Shown: piece by piece, positions 4,203 through 13,485 of the stretch
How positions within the stretch are numbered: position 1 is the stretch's first letter
Layout of the letters: the number at the start of each line of letters is the position of its first letter
DNA from: Acidimicrobiaceae bacterium
GTDB taxonomy: Bacteria > Actinomycetota > Acidimicrobiia > Acidimicrobiales > RAAP-2
Assembly (NCBI GenBank): GCA_003132165.1
Contig: PKWW01000027.1
Location: forward strand, 3,312-67,311
Length of the DNA: 64,000 nucleotides
Direction: 5' to 3'
Program-made: the position numbers and the translations under genes
Notes under the pieces: model-generated
The model's input: only the letters and a program-made list of their open reading frames with translations
Databases searched by the model: none
Told to the model about the DNA's origin: nothing

Positions 4203-5768
4203 CTAGATCGCCCGGCCGGTCCCTTCCCAGTACGGATCACGCAGAAGCCGCTTGTAAAGTTTCCCCGTCGGTGATCGTGGCAGACGCTCCTCGAAGTCGA
4301 TCGACCTCGGAACCTTGTAACCGGCAAGGTTCCGTCGAACGAAGGTCATGAGTTCGGTAGCCAGCTCCGGTGAACCGATGACGCCCTCGACGAGTTCGAC
4401 CGCGGCCTTCACCTGTTCGCCCATCTCCTCGTCGGGTACTCCGAAGACTGCGGCGTCCGCAACTGCGGGGTGGGTGACGAGCACGCCTTCGATCTCTGCG
4501 GGATAGATGTTGACACCGCCGCTGATGATCATGTCGATCTTGCGGTCACTCAGGAACAAGTAACCTTCGTCGTCCAGGTATCCAACGTCACCGATCGTGC
4601 CGACGCCGGGTGCGAGATGGGCGGCCTCGGTCTTCTCCGTCGCCTTGTTGTACGAGAAGTCGGCCCCGCCGAGGCTCCGAAAGTAAATCTGGCCCACTTC
4701 TCCGGGCCCGCACGGCTGTTGGTGATCGTCAACAATCGTCACCTCGAAACCCTTCACGGGCTTGCCTACGCTCCCTGGGCGCTCCAGCCACTCAGGGCCG
4801 TGGATTACTGTGAGGAACCCGCTCTCGGTCCCGCCGTAGTACTCAGTGATCACCGGTCCCCACCAGTCGAGCATCTGCTGCTTCACCTTCAAGGGGCACG
4901 GCGCCGCGCCGTGTATCACCGATACGAGCGATGAACCGTCGAAGATCTCACGCGTCGCTTCGGGCAACTTGAGCAATCGACTGAGCTGCGTAGGAACGAG
5001 ATGGGTGTTGGTGACCCGGTGACGGTCAACCAACGTCAACAGCGAAGCCGCGTCGAAGTGCTGGCGCATCACGCAGGTGCTGCCGAGCGCCAGAAGCGGG
5101 TACAACGACAGCGCGAGTTGCGCCGAATGATAGGCGGGACCATCCAGCAACGTCACACCTTCGGCCGGAATCTGCAGGACCGAGCTGACACCGATTCCGA
5201 GAAGCTTGACGAGCGCTAGGTCGTTACCCGTGGCATTGAGGCCTGAGCGAACACCCTTGGGAAATCCAGTAGTACCCGAGGTGTAAAACATTGGACCGCC
5301 GCTCGCCTGATTATCGGGCTCGTCAGTGGGTTGATCCGCAATCACGTCCTCGTAGTTGAGAAAACCCGGTAACTCGCGCTCGCCAATGATGATCTTGGTG
5401 GTGCAACCGCTTGTCTGCGGGTCGAGGCACGCTTCGCGGGCCGCGTCGGCGAACTGGTCCTCGACGAAGAGCACCTTGGCGTCGCAGTCCGCGAGTACGT
5501 AGGCCAGCTCCCTGCTGACCCAGTGCCAGTTCACTGGGACGAACACCAACGAGGTGTGGGCCGCCGCCGCGGCCACCTCGAAGAACTCACGACGATTGCC
5601 CGACATTATGGCGACGGTGTCGCCCGGTTGCACACCAGTTGCTCGCAACAGATGAATCACCTGGTTGACCCGATCATTGAACAGCGACCACGTCGTCGCA
5701 CCCTGCTCATCGATGACCGCGATCGCCGACCCCTTTCGATCGACGACGTCCATAATGAGTTGCGCCAT
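4203..5768 (-). CDS. Acyl-CoA synthetase (AMP-binding, FadD4-like)
   Basis: [39 protein letters not shown] and TGKLYKR motifs. Confidence 0.92.
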
Positions 5769-5889: not shown

Positions 5890-6771
5890 CTACGAGCGCC
5901 GCATCATACGGCCGAGCTTTCGCAGAGGCCGAGGAATCATCCGCTTGAGGAGGTCCAGCTCTGAGCGCAGCTCGGCGATTTCTGCGACCTGGGCGTCGTA
6001 GTGCGTCTGCAGCGCACCATTACGACGCGTCGCATCGCGAAGCTGATCGTTCAATTCGATGAGGTCCTTCGAGAGATTCTCGAGTGCGCTCGTATCATTG
6101 TCGCGTACTGCCTTTACGACGAACTGATAGGTCTCGGCTTCGCGTTCGACGAGGGCGGCCTTGAGTACTTGGTCATCGACATCGCCAGCCTCGACCCCGA
6201 TCTCAGTGGTAAAGACCGGTGCAGTCGCACGACAGAACTCCACCGGAGCCAAGCCCGCCTCGCGAAGTAGATCGAGCAGTGTCTCCTTCGTGAAGAAATG
6301 GACGTGGGTGCGGTCCAATAGTCCGGAGTCGGCGTAGGGGAACTCGCCGTTCAAGAGGGCGATCTTTATGTCCGCGTGGGCGATATTCGGCACCGAGACC
6401 ACGACTGTTCCTCCGGGTTGAAGGTACTGCAGCGACTTGCGCAGCGCTGCCAAAGGATCCCTGAGGTGTTCGAGCACGTCGCCGAACACAATCACGTCGA
6501 AGAATTCACCATCCAACTGGTCCCATACCTCGACGTCCTCAAGGTTCCCAACCACGATTCGTTCCAACCACTGCTTCGCGGATTCAGCTGCAATCGGATC
6601 GATTTCGACGCCAACCACGCGGCACTCGCGCGCTTTCAGAGCCTTACTCACGTGACCCGACGAGCAACCCGCTTCGAGCACCCTCTTGTTGAAACCCACC
6701 ATTCGAAGGATCAGGGAGTGTGAGTTGTTCTCGTCGTCCGGATTCACCTCAACGTGATAGTGGGAAAGCAT
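5890..6771 (-). CDS. Class I SAM-dependent methyltransferase with C-terminal coiled coil (type often linked to glycan modification)
   Basis: VLEAGCSSG motif I, FDVIVFGDVLEHL, LLDRTHVHFF; heptad-like tail. Confidence 0.85.
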   Translation of the reverse strand: MLSHYHVEVNPDDENNSHSLILRMVGFNKRVLEAGCSSGHVSKALKARECRVVGVEIDPIAAESAKQWLERIVVGNLEDVEVWDQLDGEFFDVIVFGDVLEHLRDPLAALRKSLQYLQPGGTVVVSVPNIAHADIKIALLNGEFPYADSGLLDRTHVHFFTKETLLDLLREAGLAPVEFCRATAPVFTTEIGVEAGDVDDQVLKAALVEREAETYQFVVKAVRDNDTSALENLSKDLIELNDQLRDATRRNGALQTHYDAQVAEIAELRSELDLLKRMIPRPLRKLGRMMRRS

Positions 6772-6922: not shown

Positions 6923-7368
6923 GCGGTGTTCGGTGGTGTCATCGCGTTGACGTTGGCCGTTCTCACCTTCACCAGTCCGTGACGTCCTGAGTCGAACACT
7001 CGACTGGCAAGGCGATCCTCTCCAGCTCTATTTGCTGTGACGCGACGTGTCGCCAAAACCGACAATCAGCGCTACCGCTCGAAAATGGGCGAACTCGTGT
7101 CATCGGATGTCGCCATGCGGCTCTTGAACAGGAAGTCAAAACTGAGTCGACCGGCCCCGAGGCACACGACGATGAGCGCCAACGCCGCGAGCGCCAAGTT
7201 CAACTCGTAGCCCGTCCTTGGTGGTGCGGCGTGAATTCCATTGGCCCACGTGACCGTGACCATGGCCATCATCATGTCGAGGAACAAGGCCATCCCGGCC
7301 AGACGCGTGACCAATCCGAGAGTGAGTGCGACGCCACCGCCAAACTCGATGACACCACCGAACACCGC
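6923..7368. repeat. 22-bp perfect inverted repeat pair (6923-6944 and 7347-7368)
   Basis: GCGGTGTTCGGTGGTGTCATCG at 6923 is the exact reverse complement of 7347-7368 inside doxX. Confidence 0.9.
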
Positions 7369-7608
7369 AAAGAATCCTCCGGGATGAAGGTGCGCGGTAT
7401 CCGCAAAGAACAGGGCAGTCTGGTGCAGTCCGGGGCCATTGAACGCCCCGAAAAGTTTGCCCGCTCCGTAGTAGATGAAGACCCACGCGAGGGCGAGGCG
7501 CGCGCCCGCGAGCGCGATATCGGCCGGTATCGACGGATTACGACTCTCCAACACAGTGATGAAGAACGTGCGCGCTCTGCCCCGATCTCGAGGCTCTTCT
7601 CTCAGCAT
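7072..7608 (-). CDS. DoxX family membrane protein
   Basis: ARLALAWVFIYYGAGKLFG, EFGGG..L.LGL.TR, GYELNL; start overlaps the desaturase stop. Confidence 0.88.
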   Translation of the reverse strand: MLREEPRDRGRARTFFITVLESRNPSIPADIALAGARLALAWVFIYYGAGKLFGAFNGPGLHQTALFFADTAHLHPGGFFAVFGGVIEFGGGVALTLGLVTRLAGMALFLDMMMAMVTVTWANGIHAAPPRTGYELNLALAALALIVVCLGAGRLSFDFLFKSRMATSDDTSSPIFER

Positions 7609-8729
7609 TCGCCAACCCCGGCATCAGCGTGCGCCGCCCGATCAGTGTCGTTACGCGCTCTCTGTTCGAGTTGCCGCTCGCTCGAGTACGCGCGGTCTGC
7701 GCCGGCGGGTGATACCCAGGGATCGCTGCCTTCGCCGATGGGGCGAAAGGGCGCGACGAGTTGGGCGGCGAAGACCCTGAGATGGCGCGGTCGGTCCCCC
7801 GCCTGTTCGACCATGAGTGGGCGCCCCGCGAGGCCCGTATCGATGCGGATGGTCTCGGACGTCGGGAAGAACGCACGATGCGAGAGCTGGTCCCAGATCG
7901 TCAACGCGAAGCCGAGATTCACGTCCTGCGGTCCGTCGAGGCGGTGGTGGATGCGGTGATAATTCGGGCTCACGAATAAACGACCAAGCGGTCCGAAGCC
8001 CAGATTCGTGTTCGAGTGGGCGAACGCGACCACGCCGGCGTACGCGACCAGCAACGCCGTCGTCACCGCCCCGTTGGCGAGCAGCACCGTGCCCGGAATC
8101 AGGGCGATCAGGTAGGAGACGTGAATCAGCGGGTGCGTGCGAAAGACGGTCAGCACGCTCATGTCCTCTTGTGAGTGATGCACCTCGTGGAACCGCCAGA
8201 GCACGCGCACCCTGTGGTTCGCCAGGTGCGCCAACCAATTACAGCCGTCCATCGCCACGAAGATCAGAGCAATGACGATCCAACGCGGCATCAGGCCGAG
8301 CCTCGGCATGACCACCCACGGCATTGTCGTGCGGGCCACTTCGGAAAACGAAAGGGTGAGCGCCACGACCAGTGGCGCGACCAGCGTGGCGTTCAGCACG
8401 GTGAAGAGAAGGTCATGACGGTAGCCACGCGCGAAAGGCGATCGGCGCTGTGCCGGGCGTAGACGTTCGACCATGAGGAAGACACCGAGCAAGAGGAGGG
8501 TCACCGGACCAACTGCGACAACACGCAGACTCGTCATCGCACCAGCGAAGCTCGCCCCTCCCCACCGGCTGGCCAGTCCGATCGCAGTCAGCGTGACCGC
8601 AACGGCCATGATCGAAAATGCTGGCAAATAGAGCCGTGACGCCAACGCACGTGCCATCGTACGAACGCGCCGCACGCGCGGAGCAACGAGCAATTCTGTA
8701 CGAACCGAAGTCACGACTGCTGTTGACAT
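7602..8729 (-). CDS. Sterol desaturase / fatty acid hydroxylase family protein
   Basis: His boxes HLANH, HEVHHS and YHRIHH; membrane segments. Confidence 0.88.
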   Translation of the reverse strand: MSTAVVTSVRTELLVAPRVRRVRTMARALASRLYLPAFSIMAVAVTLTAIGLASRWGGASFAGAMTSLRVVAVGPVTLLLLGVFLMVERLRPAQRRSPFARGYRHDLLFTVLNATLVAPLVVALTLSFSEVARTTMPWVVMPRLGLMPRWIVIALIFVAMDGCNWLAHLANHRVRVLWRFHEVHHSQEDMSVLTVFRTHPLIHVSYLIALIPGTVLLANGAVTTALLVAYAGVVAFAHSNTNLGFGPLGRLFVSPNYHRIHHRLDGPQDVNLGFALTIWDQLSHRAFFPTSETIRIDTGLAGRPLMVEQAGDRPRHLRVFAAQLVAPFRPIGEGSDPWVSPAGADRAYSSERQLEQRARNDTDRAAHADAGVGEC

Positions 8730-8754
8730 GATTCTCCCCCGGCTATCAACCTGG

Positions 8755-9291
8755 CTAGAACGAGACCCCTCCACTACTCGGGCTCGTTGTTGTTGTCGTT
8801 GTCGACGAACCGGACGTAACGGCGGCCTTGGTCACGACGACGGACCACTTTCCCCACGTGTCGGTCACGTTGCCGTTGACCTGGTCCGGGGCGGTGTCGC
8901 CGGCGAACCGGTAGAGGGCCTTACCGGCGTAGGTGACCTGGAGCGCACCTCCGGTGCGCCTGATGACCCCCAGCTTGGCGGCGCTGACGCCGCTGCCCGC
9001 AGTTGCCTTGGTCGCGCCTTTGGGCAAGAGGACCTCAGGCCACACCGCGAGGCAACTGGCCTTGCAGGCCGTCGCGCTGGGCTTCAGGCTATAGACCGTT
9101 TTCCCGCTGACCAGGATGGTCCCGTACTGGGTGGTCTTTAGAGTTGCGACGACGACACCCTTGACCGCGTGGCTCTTCGCAGCACCCGCCGAGTTGACCA
9201 TGACCGACGCGGACAACCCGCTGATCGTGATACACGCAACTCCCACGTATCGGAGCAGAATTCGACGCGACTTCCTCTTCTTCACAATCAT
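8755..9291 (-). CDS. Secreted protein of COG4315 / Yx(FWY)xxD repeat type
   Basis: Basic n-region plus hydrophobic signal peptide; C..SC...WP and QVTYAGKALYRFAGD motifs; Thr/Ser-rich tail. Confidence 0.8.
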   Translation of the reverse strand: MIVKKRKSRRILLRYVGVACITISGLSASVMVNSAGAAKSHAVKGVVVATLKTTQYGTILVSGKTVYSLKPSATACKASCLAVWPEVLLPKGATKATAGSGVSAAKLGVIRRTGGALQVTYAGKALYRFAGDTAPDQVNGNVTDTWGKWSVVVTKAAVTSGSSTTTTTTSPSSGGVSF

Positions 9292-9349
9292 CGCCACCTC
9301 AATTGCCTCCTCTGCAGCCTGCGCCGCGGTCTCTTCGTTCGTTCTAAGT

Positions 9350-9377
9350 GATACGGAGGGCCCGATGAAAAGGATCA
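9350..9377 (-). promoter_or_regulatory. Putative ECF sigma promoter for the secreted protein-desaturase-doxX operon
   Basis: Minus strand TGATCC-N17-GTATC, same layout as the site upstream of the sigma gene. Confidence 0.7.
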
Positions 9378-9421
9378 CGGGAACCAACCGAAATCTTGGA
9401 TATTCGCGAAACCACCGCCGA

Positions 9422-10102
9422 TCACACCGACAGACGGGCGCTTGCGATAACGGCACCATCGGCGGCCACGATTCGAGCGCTGCGAACCTGAGCGGCGCTC
9501 ACCGTCAAACGAGCCGCCCACGCGCTGTAGTCGCCAGACAGATTGAACCACCCGACCGTCAAAGTCTGGCCGTTGTTCAGCGTGACTTCGCAGGAAACGT
9601 CGCCCGACAACTTTGCGGAATCGACAGTCACGAACATCCACGTAGGCTGATCAGTGGAAATGACTACTTGGCCCATGACCCGTCCGTTCGAGGTGAGTTG
9701 AGCCAGGGCTGGAGCGGCTGCGACGGACCGATTGGGGCTTCCCGTCCCGTTGTTCGAGACAAAGACACCTACGCCGAAGCCGAGAACGGCGACGAGCACG
9801 GCCGCTATCGCGAATGCGCTCACTCGTCGAAATCGTCGTGACCGGTCTCGCTGAGCTGCCTCGCGAAGTTTCTCTGAAAGACGTGACTCAAATCCCAGGG
9901 GCGGCTCAATCTCGGGCGTCAGCATCAATAGCGTGTCCGCTGCGGTCGACAGCGATTCAAGTTCCGCCCCGCAGTGGGCGCAGGACTCGAGGTGATCGAG
10001 GACCTCGGCTCTTTCGCGGCCCGCAAGGATTCCGAGCGCGAGTTCGGCGAGATCATCCTGAACCATCTGACACTTATCTGGGTCTCGCGTGTACTGGCTC
10101 AT
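9422..10102 (-). CDS. Membrane-anchored zinc-finger (ZAS) anti-sigma factor
   Basis: HLESCAHC (HxxxCxxC), one TM helix, extracytoplasmic domain; ATGA overlap with the sigma stop. Confidence 0.88.
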   Translation of the reverse strand: MSQYTRDPDKCQMVQDDLAELALGILAGRERAEVLDHLESCAHCGAELESLSTAADTLLMLTPEIEPPLGFESRLSEKLREAAQRDRSRRFRRVSAFAIAAVLVAVLGFGVGVFVSNNGTGSPNRSVAAAPALAQLTSNGRVMGQVVISTDQPTWMFVTVDSAKLSGDVSCEVTLNNGQTLTVGWFNLSGDYSAWAARLTVSAAQVRSARIVAADGAVIASARLSV

Positions 10103-10677
10103 GGGCTCTCCGATATCACAAGAGTCTCTCGAAGCTTCGCCATCCCCAGCCGAATTCGACTCTTTGCAGTTCCCAATGGGATTGACTCCACGGCCGCCAC
10201 CTCGACAGCTGTCCTCCCGTACATCGCAGCCAGTACAACTGCGCGTCGCTGCTCCATCGGGAGGTTCGAGAGCGCAATCCGAACTCGGGTCATCGCGTCT
10301 GCGGCCAACGCGGTGTCCTCCGGCTGACGCTCGACACTCACGAGCTCGAGGAACACACGATCGTCGGGAGCGACTGGAATACTCCGTCGAATCCGTACGG
10401 CGTCGATGGCCAGATTGCGGGTGATGGTCAGCGTCCACGTTGTGACAGAACCCCGACGTGCATCGAACACCGAAGCGTGCCGCACTATCCGAATGAACGC
10501 CTCTTGGGCAACGTCCTCGGCCGTACCAACGTCGCCAACAATCCCGAATGCGAGTCCGAACAGTCGGCGCTGGTAACGCCGGACGAACGTCAATACAGCC
10601 TGCTCGTCACCTACCGCGATGCCGGAGAGAAGGGTCTCGTCCGAAACCCCTTCATCCTTGCCGTGACGCTTCCTCAT
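10099..10677 (-). CDS. ECF RNA polymerase sigma factor (SigK-like)
   Basis: AEDVAQEAF region 2, RNLAIDAVR, region 4 IPLGTAKSRIRLGM. Confidence 0.92.
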   Translation of the reverse strand: MRKRHGKDEGVSDETLLSGIAVGDEQAVLTFVRRYQRRLFGLAFGIVGDVGTAEDVAQEAFIRIVRHASVFDARRGSVTTWTLTITRNLAIDAVRIRRSIPVAPDDRVFLELVSVERQPEDTALAADAMTRVRIALSNLPMEQRRAVVLAAMYGRTAVEVAAVESIPLGTAKSRIRLGMAKLRETLVISESP

Positions 10678-10685
10678 CGTTAGAT

Positions 10686-10713
10686 AGTACGGCTGATGGG
10701 TCAATTTGGATCA
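10686..10713 (-). promoter_or_regulatory. Putative autoregulated ECF promoter, probably leaderless
   Basis: Minus strand TGATCC-N17-GTACT ending 8 nt before the ATG at 10677; no SD sequence in between. Confidence 0.7.
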
Positions 10714-10813: not shown

Positions 10814-12514
10814 CTATATGAAGTCCTCTTCACGGTATTCACCCTGTGGCCTCCCGTCGATGCGCTCGATTTCTGCGGTGCGTAGTTCGACGCGACGGAT
10901 CTTGCCGCTGATGGTCTTTGGAAGATTAGTGAACTCCAGACGTCGGATTCGCTTGTACGGCGCCAGATTCGCCCGGCAGTGGGCCAGAATCTCGCCGGCG
11001 AGTTCGCGACTCGGCTCGATGCCGACGACGAGTGTGACGTAGGCCTTGGGCACCGTCAGGCGCTTCTCGTCGGGCGCGGGTACGACCGCAGCCTCACCAA
11101 CGGCGTAGTGCTCGATCAGAACGCTCTCCAACTCGAAAGGACTGATCCGGTAGTCACTCGATTTGAACACGTCGTCGGTGCGGCCAATGAACGTGATGAA
11201 GCCGTCGTCGTCGCGCGCCGCCACGTCGCCCGTGTGGTAGCGACCACCGGCGAACGCCCGCTCGTTCACCTCGGTGCTCGAACCGATTCCGGTTTGGTAG
11301 CCGACCATCAAGCCCACCGGTCGGTCCGTTCCACAGCGCACGCAGATCTCACCTTCGTCGGCGACCGCGTCGGTGACGGGGTCGACGAGATCGATGTGGA
11401 ACCCCGGCATCGGGCGACCCATGGACCCCGCCTTCAGGGGCTGGCCCGGCGAGTTGCCGATCTGCAGTGTCGTCTCGGTCTGTCCGTAACCGTCACGAAT
11501 CACGAGACCCCACTCACGACGCACGTGTTCGATCACCTCGGGGTTCAGCGGCTCGCCGGCACTCAGGGCCTCGCGCAGCGACATCGACCACTTCGAGAGG
11601 TCTTGCTGGACCAACGTGCGCCACACCGTCGGTGGAGCGCAGAACGTCGTCACCTTGGCGTCACGAAGGACGTCGAGCATCGCGACCGGATCGAAGCGCT
11701 CGTAGTTGAACAGACAGATTGTCGCCCCCGCGATCCACGGCGCGAAGACGCACGACCAGGCGTGCTTGGCCCAGCCGGGGCTCGACACGTTGAGATGCAC
11801 GTCGCCGGGCTGGAGTCCGATCCAGTACATCGTCGAAAGATGCCCAATCGGATAGCTCACGTTAGTGTGCTCGACGATCTTCGGTAGCGACGTCGTGCCC
11901 GACGTGAAGTACACCAGCAGAAGATCGCTCGCCGCCGTCGGCGCGTCCACATCGAACGCCGTCGAACTGGCATCCGACTCCGTAAAGTCGTGCCAGCCGC
12001 TGACCGGCGCACCGACGGCGACGCGAAGGAAGTCGCCCGGTACGTCGTCGAAGTTGTGCGTCACGTCTGATCGTGCGATCACTGCGCCCGCCTCGGCCCG
12101 GTCAACACGGTCGCGCAGGTCGGCCGGGGTCAGCATCGTGGTCGCCGGTATGAGGACCGCCCCGAGCTTCATCGCCGCGAGGAACGACTCCCACAACTCC
12201 ACCTGATTGCCGAGCAGGACGAGAATTCGCGTGCCGCGCTTGACTCCGAGGTCGCGCAACCAGTTGGCCAGTTGGTTGGAGCGGTGCGAGAGTTGCGCGT
12301 AGGTATACGACGCATCGGTCCCGTCGCCCTCGATTATCCGCAGGGCCGCTCGGGTGGGGTGCTCGGCAACGAGCACACCGTCGAACCAGTCGATCGCGAA
12401 GTTGAAGTGCTCCGGTCGGGGCCAGACGAATTGTTCGTACGCGGTCTCGTAGTCGGAGCGGTGCTCGAGAAGAAAGTCCCGGGCCTTACGAAAATCCTCG
12501 GTCGCAGTAGCCAC
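10814..12514 (-). CDS. Acyl-CoA synthetase (short/medium-chain, acetate-CoA ligase-like)
   Basis: YFTSGTTSLPK, DGYGQTET, YHTGD, TISGKIRR. Confidence 0.92.
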   Translation of the reverse strand: MATATEDFRKARDFLLEHRSDYETAYEQFVWPRPEHFNFAIDWFDGVLVAEHPTRAALRIIEGDGTDASYTYAQLSHRSNQLANWLRDLGVKRGTRILVLLGNQVELWESFLAAMKLGAVLIPATTMLTPADLRDRVDRAEAGAVIARSDVTHNFDDVPGDFLRVAVGAPVSGWHDFTESDASSTAFDVDAPTAASDLLLVYFTSGTTSLPKIVEHTNVSYPIGHLSTMYWIGLQPGDVHLNVSSPGWAKHAWSCVFAPWIAGATICLFNYERFDPVAMLDVLRDAKVTTFCAPPTVWRTLVQQDLSKWSMSLREALSAGEPLNPEVIEHVRREWGLVIRDGYGQTETTLQIGNSPGQPLKAGSMGRPMPGFHIDLVDPVTDAVADEGEICVRCGTDRPVGLMVGYQTGIGSSTEVNERAFAGGRYHTGDVAARDDDGFITFIGRTDDVFKSSDYRISPFELESVLIEHYAVGEAAVVPAPDEKRLTVPKAYVTLVVGIEPSRELAGEILAHCRANLAPYKRIRRLEFTNLPKTISGKIRRVELRTAEIERIDGRPQGEYREEDFI

Positions 12515-13086
12515 TCTTGTCCATCCCTCTGTTGTCGGTGCCAGACTCCTGTTGAAGGCTGTCTACGTTCTAACCCGGGCTCCACGTTGCGTCAAATGCG
12601 CCATCACCCGATTATCGGTCAATCCTCATATTGGAACGTGGACATCTGGTTCGTTGGAAACTGTGATCGGACTTCCTTTCCCTTGCGCCCATTCGGCAAG
12701 CTCGGTTGGAGATGGAGTGCGGCAAATAGCGCTCCACACCGAGCTCTGAACCGAACTATGTCCTACGCGCCGACCGCCGCCAGCGTTTCGGTTGACGCTT
12801 CAACGGGGTGCGCCGGCGGCGAAACAACCGGGTCTTACCTCCCTCCACGTCCAGTACGGAGTTTGTCCCCGGCAGACCTTGACGGGCCAGGTTGAAGGCC
12901 GCGTAATTCATGTGGACTCCAGCATGAACCACCGAGGCGCAGCCCCTAAACAAAAACGTCAGTCTCTCTTTTGACCATCGATGATCAGGAGGTACGCCAA
13001 AGGCAAAGTTGTGACTTTCGACACCTATGAAGGCGGGGCGGTACCCGTACGTTCTAAATGGAGGCTTCACTTACGAAAGGATTTCT

Positions 13087-13485
13087 ATGGGCAGCCAAAA
13101 GAGGAACGAGGGTTTAGGGCTTGTCGCGGCAGTGGCGTGTTGCGGGATGATGCTCGGCGCGTGCGAGCACTGTCGACATGCGAGAAAACAACGTCGACAC
13201 CAGTGCTGTGATGCAAACGAAGGCCCCGGACACAAGCACGGCCACGGCCCTTGCGCCTGTAACGAGCACGGCCCCGGACATGACGAAGGCCCCGGACACA
13301 AGCACAGCCACGGTCCGTGCGCCTGCAACGAACACGGCCCCGGACATGACGAAGGCCCCGGACATCCCCACGGTCCCGGACACGAAGATGATCCGATCAG
13401 GATGCTCGACGTACGCTTCGCCAAGGGTGAGATCGACGAAGCTGATTACCTGCGCCGCCGCGAGATTCTCAAGGGCACGCACTAA
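13087..13485 (+). CDS. His/Cys-rich repeat protein with C-terminal SHOCT domain
   Basis: GAAAGGA RBS-like sequence; C-terminal LDVRFAKGEIDEADYLRRREIL; 17 His and 10 Cys in 132 aa. Confidence 0.8.
   Translation: MGSQKRNEGLGLVAAVACCGMMLGACEHCRHARKQRRHQCCDANEGPGHKHGHGPCACNEHGPGHDEGPGHKHSHGPCACNEHGPGHDEGPGHPHGPGHEDDPIRMLDVRFAKGEIDEADYLRRREILKGTH
13219..13365 (+). repeat. 66-bp in-frame tandem repeat, about 2.2 copies
   Basis: Units begin GAAGGCCCCGGACA at 13219, 13285 and 13351; encode EGPGHKH(G/S)HGPCACNEHGPGHD. Confidence 0.95.

Follow-up and report, generated by a model that had tools for sequence, protein, structure and literature searches.

The locus described here raises the question of whether five neighboring genes, which encode a sigma factor, an anti-sigma factor, a secreted protein, a membrane hydroxylase and a DoxX protein, form one regulated unit, and what such a unit might do. 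The genes lie in a 64,000-nt stretch of DNA (referred to here as the window) from an Acidimicrobiaceae bacterium (GCA_003132165.1, contig PKWW01000027.1, positions 3,312-67,311 of the forward strand). The 2.3-Mb assembly is 94.7% complete and represents an uncultured peat/soil Acidimicrobiales lineage. A preliminary description of the locus had placed the genes under a zinc-binding anti-sigma factor (ZAS) and had proposed a self-contained envelope or redox stress system that remodels a lipid. Our analysis favors, with somewhat better than even confidence, a dedicated and autoregulated switch, composed of an extracytoplasmic function (ECF) sigma factor and a transmembrane ZAS anti-sigma factor, that controls a very small regulon with a membrane-tailoring output. 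The regulatory part of this explanation has a firm footing in the sequence, whereas its signal, its substrate, and the parts played in it by DoxX and the secreted protein are inferred. The features of the module are as follows.

10713..10688, minus strand: ECF-type promoter P1, TGATCC-N15-CCGTA before the sigma gene
10677..10099, minus strand: ECF sigma gene, 192 aa, Sigma70_r2 and r4
10102..9422, minus strand: anti-sigma gene, 226 aa, zf-HC2 and one transmembrane helix
9377..9352, minus strand: ECF-type promoter P2, TGATCC-N15-CCGTA in the gap between the sigma operon and the secreted-protein gene
9291..8755, minus strand: secreted Lipoprotein_15 gene, 178 aa, PF03640, Sec signal peptide
8729..7602, minus strand: FA_hydroxylase gene, 375 aa, PF04116, His boxes
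7608..7072, minus strand: doxX gene, 178 aa, PF07681

With P1 included, the module spans 7072-10713. The five genes are co-oriented on the minus strand, as the preliminary description had stated, and each is single-copy in the genome. The two gene overlaps that it had reported can be read directly in the sequence: the stop codon of the sigma gene and the start codon of the anti-sigma gene share ATGA, and the hydroxylase and doxX genes overlap by the 7 nt ATGCTGA, through which doxX is translationally coupled to the hydroxylase gene. The spacing of 25 bp between the secreted-protein gene and the hydroxylase (its desaturase) is also exact, with 25 nt from the stop codon to the hydroxylase ATG. 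The gap between the anti-sigma and secreted-protein genes is approximately 130 nt and contains P2. Longer open reading frame (ORF) starts for the anti-sigma, secreted-protein and hydroxylase genes were rejected as real starts. P2 would fall inside the longer secreted-protein ORF, and the protein database holds a called gene identical to the 375-aa hydroxylase.

Promoters and gene order across related genomes

The comparison was made with the best 80 of at least 559 hydroxylase-encoding genomes, from a scan with one genome per species. Genes in these loci were called from tblastn footprints, and the counts take the species as independent although they are related. The 80 loci come from metagenome-assembled genomes (MAGs) labeled as Acidimicrobiales or Acidimicrobiaceae, from palsa, bog, fen, SPRUCE peat and Danish soils, with three records labeled otherwise. 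The deposited records assign those three contigs (L043, L061 and L074) to MAGs of Acidobacteria, Mycobacterium sp. and Candidatus Saccharibacteria. Their hydroxylase orthologs are 66-74% identical to that of the window, which falls inside the range of the Acidimicrobiales-labeled loci, and the odd labels probably reflect mis-binning or mislabeling.

The exact promoter motif, TGATCC-N15-CCGTA, occurs twice in the window where 0.12 copies are expected, a count that is no independent test because the pattern was derived from the P1 and P2 regions themselves. In the whole 2.3-Mb genome there are just these two copies, before the sigma and secreted-protein genes, and a relaxed scan of the genome gave 30 matches, approximately the chance expectation, with no convincing further regulon member among them. 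With 10 nt between the end of P1 and the sigma ATG, the sigma and anti-sigma genes probably share a leaderless mRNA, and P1 is probably autoregulated; P2 lies approximately 60 nt upstream of the secreted-protein ATG.

Conservation across species provides the independent test. The pattern ATC[CT]-N16-CGTA, for which the background is 0.022 per 300 nt, was found within 300 nt upstream of the secreted-protein ortholog in 60 of 71 loci, including loci that have no adjacent sigma gene. It was also found upstream of the sigma gene in 30 of 33 loci, consistently 31-40 nt from the start, so that any leader must be short, and upstream of extra Lipoprotein_15 paralogs in 19 of 24 cases. This result strongly supports the predicted arrangement, in which an ECF sigma factor controls its own operon and a single additional one.

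In terms of gene content, a Lipoprotein_15 gene is located directly upstream of the hydroxylase gene in 68 of 77 loci, and doxX is located directly downstream in 61 of 75. Sigma and anti-sigma orthologs (65-75% and 42-55% identity, respectively) are directly upstream in 28-29 of 67. When the 65 evaluable loci were sorted, all five genes were present in 24, the trio of secreted protein, hydroxylase and DoxX without the regulators in 23, and the secreted protein and hydroxylase only in 11; the trio is kept in 47. The conserved core is the secreted protein and the hydroxylase, usually together with DoxX. Of 8 loci with a hydroxylase paralog of 38-44% identity, 7 keep the trio, and a different ECF sigma gene often lies close by. 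One genome shows a second gene order, lipo15-hyd-doxX-sigma-antisigma, behind a TTGATCC...CCGTAG site. The trio around the paralog and the second gene order argue for functional coupling over inherited synteny.

The gene-neighborhood analysis did not refute the preliminary description, as the gene set co-occurs in dozens of related species. Its proposal of a regulatory unit under a ZAS-type anti-sigma factor is borne out by the shared, conserved ECF promoter and by the co-occurrence in two gene orders. The claim that the system is self-contained holds only with a restriction, as the regulators adjoin the trio in only about 40% of the relatives. A second cluster in genome G006 (L116:5825-6260, minus strand) contains a doxX match in two pieces in different frames and a hydroxylase match to residues 73-329 only, and it could be a decayed duplicate module or an assembly error.

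The limited adjacency of the regulators, together with flanking genes that are not conserved, could be taken to mean that an ordinary ECF pair and unrelated membrane genes lie side by side by chance. Where the trio has no neighboring sigma gene, 16 of 17 genomes hold the sigma/anti-sigma pair elsewhere (53-60% identical), and most of these non-adjacent pairs are preceded by their own AATC[CT]-N16-CGTA site. This finding, the presence of the conserved promoter before both transcription units across dozens of species, and the independent second gene order effectively refute chance adjacency. Both promoters read GATC in 25 of 25 loci with an adjacent sigma gene, and an A or C before ATC in the trio promoter was found solely in genomes with a non-adjacent sigma gene. 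Strict co-variation of the -35 element between sigma clade and target was considered and rejected, as it amounts to a trend that is confounded by phylogeny.

In L087-L093, where the sigma pair does not adjoin the trio, a second copy of the motif is turned in the opposite direction and faces a gene for a small four-helix membrane protein of approximately 166 aa (L091:846-1346, minus strand, and its equivalents). A gene for a PIG-L/LmbE-type (AHPDDE) deacetylase follows it, and the two proteins are possible further members of the regulon.

The sigma factor and the membrane-bound anti-sigma factor

The sigma factor consists of regions 2 and 4 only (Pfam Sigma70_r2, 68.5 bits, plus r4_2 and r4). 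It belongs to the ECF group 4 sigma-70 factors, with a TIGR02937 score of 68.1 bits against a cut-off of 42.9, a length of approximately 190 aa and an overlapping anti-sigma gene. Its best NCBIfam match is the SigK subfamily (NF007228), at 115.6 bits and thus under the cut-off of 226, and its best PDB sequence matches, SigK 4nqw (E 1.2e-18) and SigW (E 1.6e-18), are equally good. The protein contains no cysteine, so the redox cysteine pair of SigK/ECF19, C133/C183 in Mycobacterium tuberculosis SigK (PMC7509140), is absent. Cysteine-less SigK proteins exist in Nocardia, which makes the missing cysteines alone non-decisive for SigK membership (PMC7509140). An assignment to SigK/RskA was rejected because the SigK score is below the cut-off, SigW matches equally well in the PDB, the sigma factor has no cysteine, and no RskA C-terminal domain is detectable in the anti-sigma factor.

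The anti-sigma factor matches zf-HC2 with 24.3 bits against a cut-off of 22.2 (Pfam). The HxxxCxxC motif and the membrane helix that had been noted earlier correspond to H37-x3-C41-x2-C44 and to a single transmembrane helix at residues 97-115. With C11 as the putative upstream ligand, the motif places the protein among the ZAS-domain anti-sigma factors, and its N-terminal helices (residues 8-61) are confidently modeled. C11, H37, C41 and C44 are invariant in 33-34 orthologs and occupy the positions of the RsrA zinc ligands. The anti-sigma factor thus has a predicted zinc site that is RsrA-like and redox-capable.

Residues 115-226 (approximately 110 aa) match no Pfam family, even at E values up to 10, and contain no RskA-type C-terminal domain. 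This outer part is predicted to form an eight-strand beta-sandwich of approximately 95 aa with a predicted local distance difference test (pLDDT) score above 90, and C171 within it is invariant in the same set of orthologs. A fold search with the anti-sigma factor returned only generic beta-sandwiches (CBM29, Cu/Zn-SOD-like) at E 0.008 or worse, which are not diagnostic, and a PDB sequence search gave no matches.

Two kinds of trigger are compatible with this architecture. Oxidation or alkylation at the cytoplasmic Cys/His zinc site may inactivate the anti-sigma factor, and the conserved site would permit cytoplasmic thiol oxidants or electrophiles as the signal. Alternatively, a signal may be received at the extracytoplasmic beta-sandwich and be followed by proteolysis of the anti-sigma factor. 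In either case, the freed sigma factor would transcribe from the two (T)GATCC-N16-CGTA promoters, that is, its own operon and the operon for the secreted protein, the hydroxylase and DoxX.

The secreted protein and the membrane enzymes

The hydroxylase is the most conserved gene product of the set, with 2036 database relatives of which the top 120 are 66-79% identical. It is a member of the FA_hydroxylase/sterol desaturase superfamily (PF04116, 79.5 bits; cut-off, 31) and has four or more hydrophobic helices as well as the His boxes HLANH, HEVHH and HRIHH. All eight box histidines are present, and H168, H172, H181, H184, H185, H258, H261 and H262 are invariant in 18 homologs. Three classes of substrate are unlikely. 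For an ornithine-lipid hydroxylase, the OlsE score is far too low and the 94.7%-complete genome contains no OlsB-type acyltransferase (PF13444). Carotenoid and sterol/hopanoid substrates are disfavored, despite the usual "sterol desaturase" label, because the genome has no phytoene/squalene synthase (PF00494), for which control genomes do match.

DoxX belongs to PF07681 (59.4 bits against a cut-off of 23.6; DoxD, 23.6 bits) and has four helices with hydrophobic segments. Its best NCBIfam match is the HvfX family, and a PDB sequence search gave no matches. A fusion of hydroxylase and DoxX (Rosetta stone) was sought and rejected, as the long open frames are upstream extensions and not fusions. 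A quinone-detoxification context, suggested by Flavodoxin_2, glyoxalase, HxlR and DoxX_2 genes in L001, L002 and L004, was also rejected, as it is not conserved across the 80 loci.

In 41 of 70 loci, a gene for an integral-membrane methyltransferase of the PEMT/ICMT family directly follows doxX (L001:7768-8508, L005:8944-9681, L071:8960-9697 and 38 further loci), and it was never found in a locus without doxX. This gene was found by tblastn and was missed by unbiased ORF clustering of the neighbors, which beyond the module genes yielded only wrong-frame artifacts. To our knowledge, all characterized FA_hydroxylase and PEMT/ICMT enzymes act on lipidic substrates at the membrane interface, and the frequent PEMT/ICMT neighbor favors a membrane lipid as the substrate. 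In the window, the corresponding position is occupied by a Methyltransf_23 gene (5890-6771, minus strand), approximately 300 nt downstream of doxX. It encodes a soluble class-I methyltransferase of 293 aa with a coiled-coil-like tail that is unrelated to PEMT and not conserved, with one weak match in the relatives.

On the favored explanation, the hydroxylase would oxidize a hydrophobic substrate that resides in the membrane, with the acyl chain or head group of a lipid as the most plausible target, and in most relatives the PEMT/ICMT-type methyltransferase would then methylate the oxidized product. Because the characterized enzymes of both families use lipidic substrates, oxidative tailoring of a membrane lipid or another membrane-resident hydrophobic molecule, methylated further in most relatives, is a serious candidate for the output, which we hold at somewhat less than even confidence. 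The earlier reading that the module may remodel a lipid is plausible. In eukaryotic members of the FA_hydroxylase family, cytochrome b5 supplies the electrons. DoxX may link the hydroxylase to the quinone pool as the missing electron donor; since it is translationally coupled to the hydroxylase and related to the quinone-interacting DoxD, we tentatively suggest that it supplies electrons to the di-iron center, with less confidence than we attach to the lipid chemistry. The secreted protein, for its part, would work at the outer surface of the membrane or at the wall.

Instead of being (only) an output, the product of the hydroxylase could be part of the signal, so that a modified lipid is sensed by the anti-sigma factor in a feed-forward or feedback loop. 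The hydroxylase gene stays linked to the sigma/anti-sigma genes in two gene orders, and the anti-sigma factor sits in the membrane and has a conserved outer domain. Plasmalogens made by CarF act on CarR/CarQ in Myxococcus, so a His-box membrane lipid desaturase that works upstream of an ECF anti-sigma factor would not be without precedent. CarF, however, comes from another His-box family (TMEM189/Kua), and the hydroxylase gene lies behind the sigma-dependent promoter and so looks like output. We consider such a loop quite improbable.

The secreted protein is the most often regulated product of the module, with up to three copies per locus in the relatives. It belongs to the Lipoprotein_15 family (PF03640, COG4315; 41.4 bits against a cut-off of 24.4) and contains two repeats; its LYRFAGD sequence matches the Yx(FWY)xxD motif that the preliminary description had recognized. 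The description of the protein as secreted agrees with its Sec-type signal (AxA), which has no lipobox; a lipobox-like match was found in only 5 of 68 orthologs. Y89, F91 and D94 (mature numbering) are invariant or nearly so. A CxxxC pair (C76, C80) is invariant in an alignment of 45 sequences, which contains no invariant His or Met besides. The only named NCBIfam match is the SCO0930 model, at 56 bits against a cut-off of 275, and a PDB sequence search returned nothing meaningful. In all 71 operon copies and all close paralogs, a polyThr/Ser/Gly linker leads to a terminal G-G-x-x-F-COOH (in the window, residues encoded within 8755-8800), and in the paralogous clade of 38-44% identity the terminal residue is Tyr in place of Phe. 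This tail matched no sorting motif that we recognized, and it may be a docking or processing signal.

A third, distant Lipoprotein_15-like gene (28-40% identity) is present in about a dozen relatives, and its product ends in ...NGGxWYEMKxS and not in GGxxF. It is located approximately 1.3-1.7 kb downstream of the hydroxylase gene on the opposite strand, in convergent orientation (L019, L023, L028, L038, L042, L045, L048, L054 and L082).

The uniform tail could mean that the secreted protein is a substrate or obligate partner of the membrane enzymes, with its polyThr-GGxx(F/Y)-COOH end modified or docking to the outer domain of the anti-sigma factor or to a protease of the PDZ type, in the way that E. 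coli DegS is activated by C-terminal YxF peptides. ICMT-family enzymes are known to methylate protein C-termini. The secreted-protein gene is also the tightest neighbor of the hydroxylase gene. This interpretation rests entirely on motifs; the catalytic sites of FA_hydroxylase and ICMT enzymes face the cytoplasm and take lipidic substrates, and the secreted protein lacks both a C-terminal Cys and a prenylation signal. It appears even less probable than a lipid signal. A related and speculative idea, to which we give little weight, is that the tail could be a signaling or processing handle that is read by the outer beta-sandwich or a site-1 protease, or that is modified with the help of the co-operonic enzymes. 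If this is so, monoderm Actinomycetota would possess an envelope feedback circuit of a new kind, PF03640 would gain its first function, and DoxX would be the first bacterial redox partner of an FA_hydroxylase enzyme.

The invariant CxxxC pair bears on a further interpretation, in which the module would respond to a metal (e.g., copper) or to extracytoplasmic thiol stress. The secreted protein would bind or buffer metal or carry a redox-active dithiol, and the task of the iron enzyme and DoxX would be to mature this protein or to sustain its redox cycle, not to modify lipids. Known ECF operons of Caulobacter, Neisseria and Haemophilus, which include the bufferin operons, join a Sec-exported Cys product, an iron oxidase and DoxX (PMC11626156, PMC7907618, PMC3511200). 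The family that is the best NCBIfam match of the window DoxX, HvfX, is a maturation family for copper-related ribosomally synthesized and post-translationally modified peptides (Cu-RiPPs), but the match scores 42.5 bits, below the cut-off of 80. None of the five genes encodes a DUF2282-type precursor, an MNIO (DUF692) or a DUF2063 domain, and the locus contains no MNIO/DUF692 or DUF2063 gene. The two cysteines are not accompanied by an invariant His or Met, and known FA_hydroxylase enzymes use lipids and not peptides. A His/Cys-rich protein encoded 2.3 kb away might be counted in favor of a metal-related function, but neither this gene nor the other flanking genes are conserved with the module. 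On balance, a bufferin-like function is unlikely, while it is the least improbable of these alternatives to a membrane-tailoring switch.

The His/Cys-rich protein (13027-13485, plus strand) combines a repeat (GPGHKHxHGPCACNEHGPGHDE) with a C-terminal SHOCT part and an N-terminus that resembles a lipobox. It probably binds metal, and its gene is not linked to the module in the relatives. Two genes for AMP-binding, acyl-CoA-synthetase-like proteins are on the same strand as the module. One (10814-12514, minus strand) lies upstream of the sigma gene, with 137 nt between the two, and the other (4203-5768, minus strand) lies past the methyltransferase gene, approximately 1.3 kb downstream of doxX. 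Their counterparts in the relatives are weak (27-29%) and occur in 3 of the 80 loci, and these genes are probably outside the module.

Several results weigh against a redox-responsive switch with a membrane-tailoring output. The ZAS motif alone is no proof of redox sensing. The hydroxylase reaches no curated equivalog (the OlsE model gives 57.6 bits against a cut-off of 475) and has no PDB relative by sequence search. The AlphaFold2 model of the secreted protein (pLDDT 81) has no fold relative in the PDB (no match with E <1), which makes the role assigned to this protein a guess. The genome of the window lacks a PEMT gene, and no PEMT remnant was found in the window. In 14 of 75 relatives doxX is not beside the hydroxylase gene, so DoxX is not obligatory in cis, and DoxX was dispensable in the bufferin operon, the sole DoxX-containing ECF operon tested genetically (PMC11626156). 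Finally, the module is patchy in its distribution, as it was found in 1 of 301 genomes sampled across the phylum and in approximately 14 of 49 genomes of the same GTDB genus, and it is therefore an accessory trait.

Comparison with known systems

In the literature searched, no description was found of this output set, of its promoter, or of a function for the combination of Lipoprotein_15, hydroxylase and DoxX, with or without PEMT. This agrees with the preliminary description, which had not recognized the combination as a described system. To the preliminary description the analysis adds the promoter, the PEMT/ICMT gene after doxX in most relatives, the polyThr-GGxxF tails and the RsrA-like C11/H37/C41/C44 site. 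For three of the four output families (Lipoprotein_15/COG4315, the bacterial "sterol desaturase family" enzymes and DoxX), a biochemical role in such a setting has yet to be established. Here, a readable promoter and a dedicated switch tie these three poorly understood families together, and the lineage concerned is abundant in metagenomes of peat and soil. ECF groups with conserved uncharacterized neighborhoods are numerous, and this module offers an unusually clean experimental handle, with one sigma factor, two promoters and three or four transferable output genes. Such a handle could be used to address the product of the hydroxylase and DoxX, DoxX as an electron donor, and the function of Lipoprotein_15. 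Should the product prove to be a modified lipid induced by stress, the reading of peatland lipid biomarkers could be affected.

Among known systems, a Lipoprotein_15-family exported protein, Streptomyces coelicolor SCO0930, is listed in the SigU-RsuA ECF regulon (PMC6295645). The SCO0930 family comprises lipoproteins of approximately 311 aa, whereas the window protein has 178 aa and no lipobox, is encoded in an operon with a hydroxylase, and scores far below the cut-off of that family.

ECF-controlled DoxX operons are also known (PMC11626156, PMC7907618, PMC3511200). The bufferin (buf/gig) operons, which are under SigF-NrsF, SigE-MseR or RpoE2-HrsE, resemble the module in joining an ECF-controlled, Sec-exported Cys product to an iron-dependent oxidase and DoxX. 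In the module, by contrast, the oxidase is a membrane His-box enzyme instead of an MNIO/DUF692 protein with a DUF2063 partner, a folded domain of approximately 100 aa is exported in place of a RiPP, and DoxX scores below the HvfX cut-off.

In Rhodobacter sphaeroides RpoE-ChrR, a ZAS anti-sigma factor controls a singlet-oxygen regulon whose output tailors fatty acyl chains (furan fatty acids). This system is a possible parallel; ChrR is soluble and has a cupin domain, and the enzyme families differ, being a methylase, a desaturase and DUF1365 in that system. The archetypal ZAS redox switch, S. coelicolor SigR-RsrA, is similar in its zinc site, as the four invariant residues of the window anti-sigma factor are at the zinc-ligand positions of RsrA. 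In contrast to the soluble RsrA, the window protein has a transmembrane helix and a conserved outer beta-sandwich, and its predicted regulon consists of two promoters, while SigR controls a broad thiol-stress regulon.

The overall design also resembles M. tuberculosis SigK-RskA, and SigK is the best named match of the window sigma factor. In both systems, an ECF sigma gene overlaps the gene of a single-pass anti-sigma factor, and the regulon is very small and local. The SigK regulon comprises the secreted proteins encoded by mpt70/mpt83 and the Rv0446c-Rv0449c genes, which modify membrane lipids. The differences are that the window sigma factor scores under the subfamily cut-off and has no Cys pair, that no RskA C-terminal domain was detected in the anti-sigma factor, and that the secreted protein is of the Lipoprotein_15 and not the FAS1 type, with FA_hydroxylase and DoxX in place of the cyclopropane-fatty-acid (CFA) synthase set. 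A cassette of secreted protein, sigma factor and anti-sigma factor with a conserved sigma-binding site is known from the SigK system, and SigK-RskA demonstrates that ECF/anti-sigma pairs can control tiny local regulons that include both secreted proteins and lipid-modifying enzymes (PMC7509140, PMC4105308).

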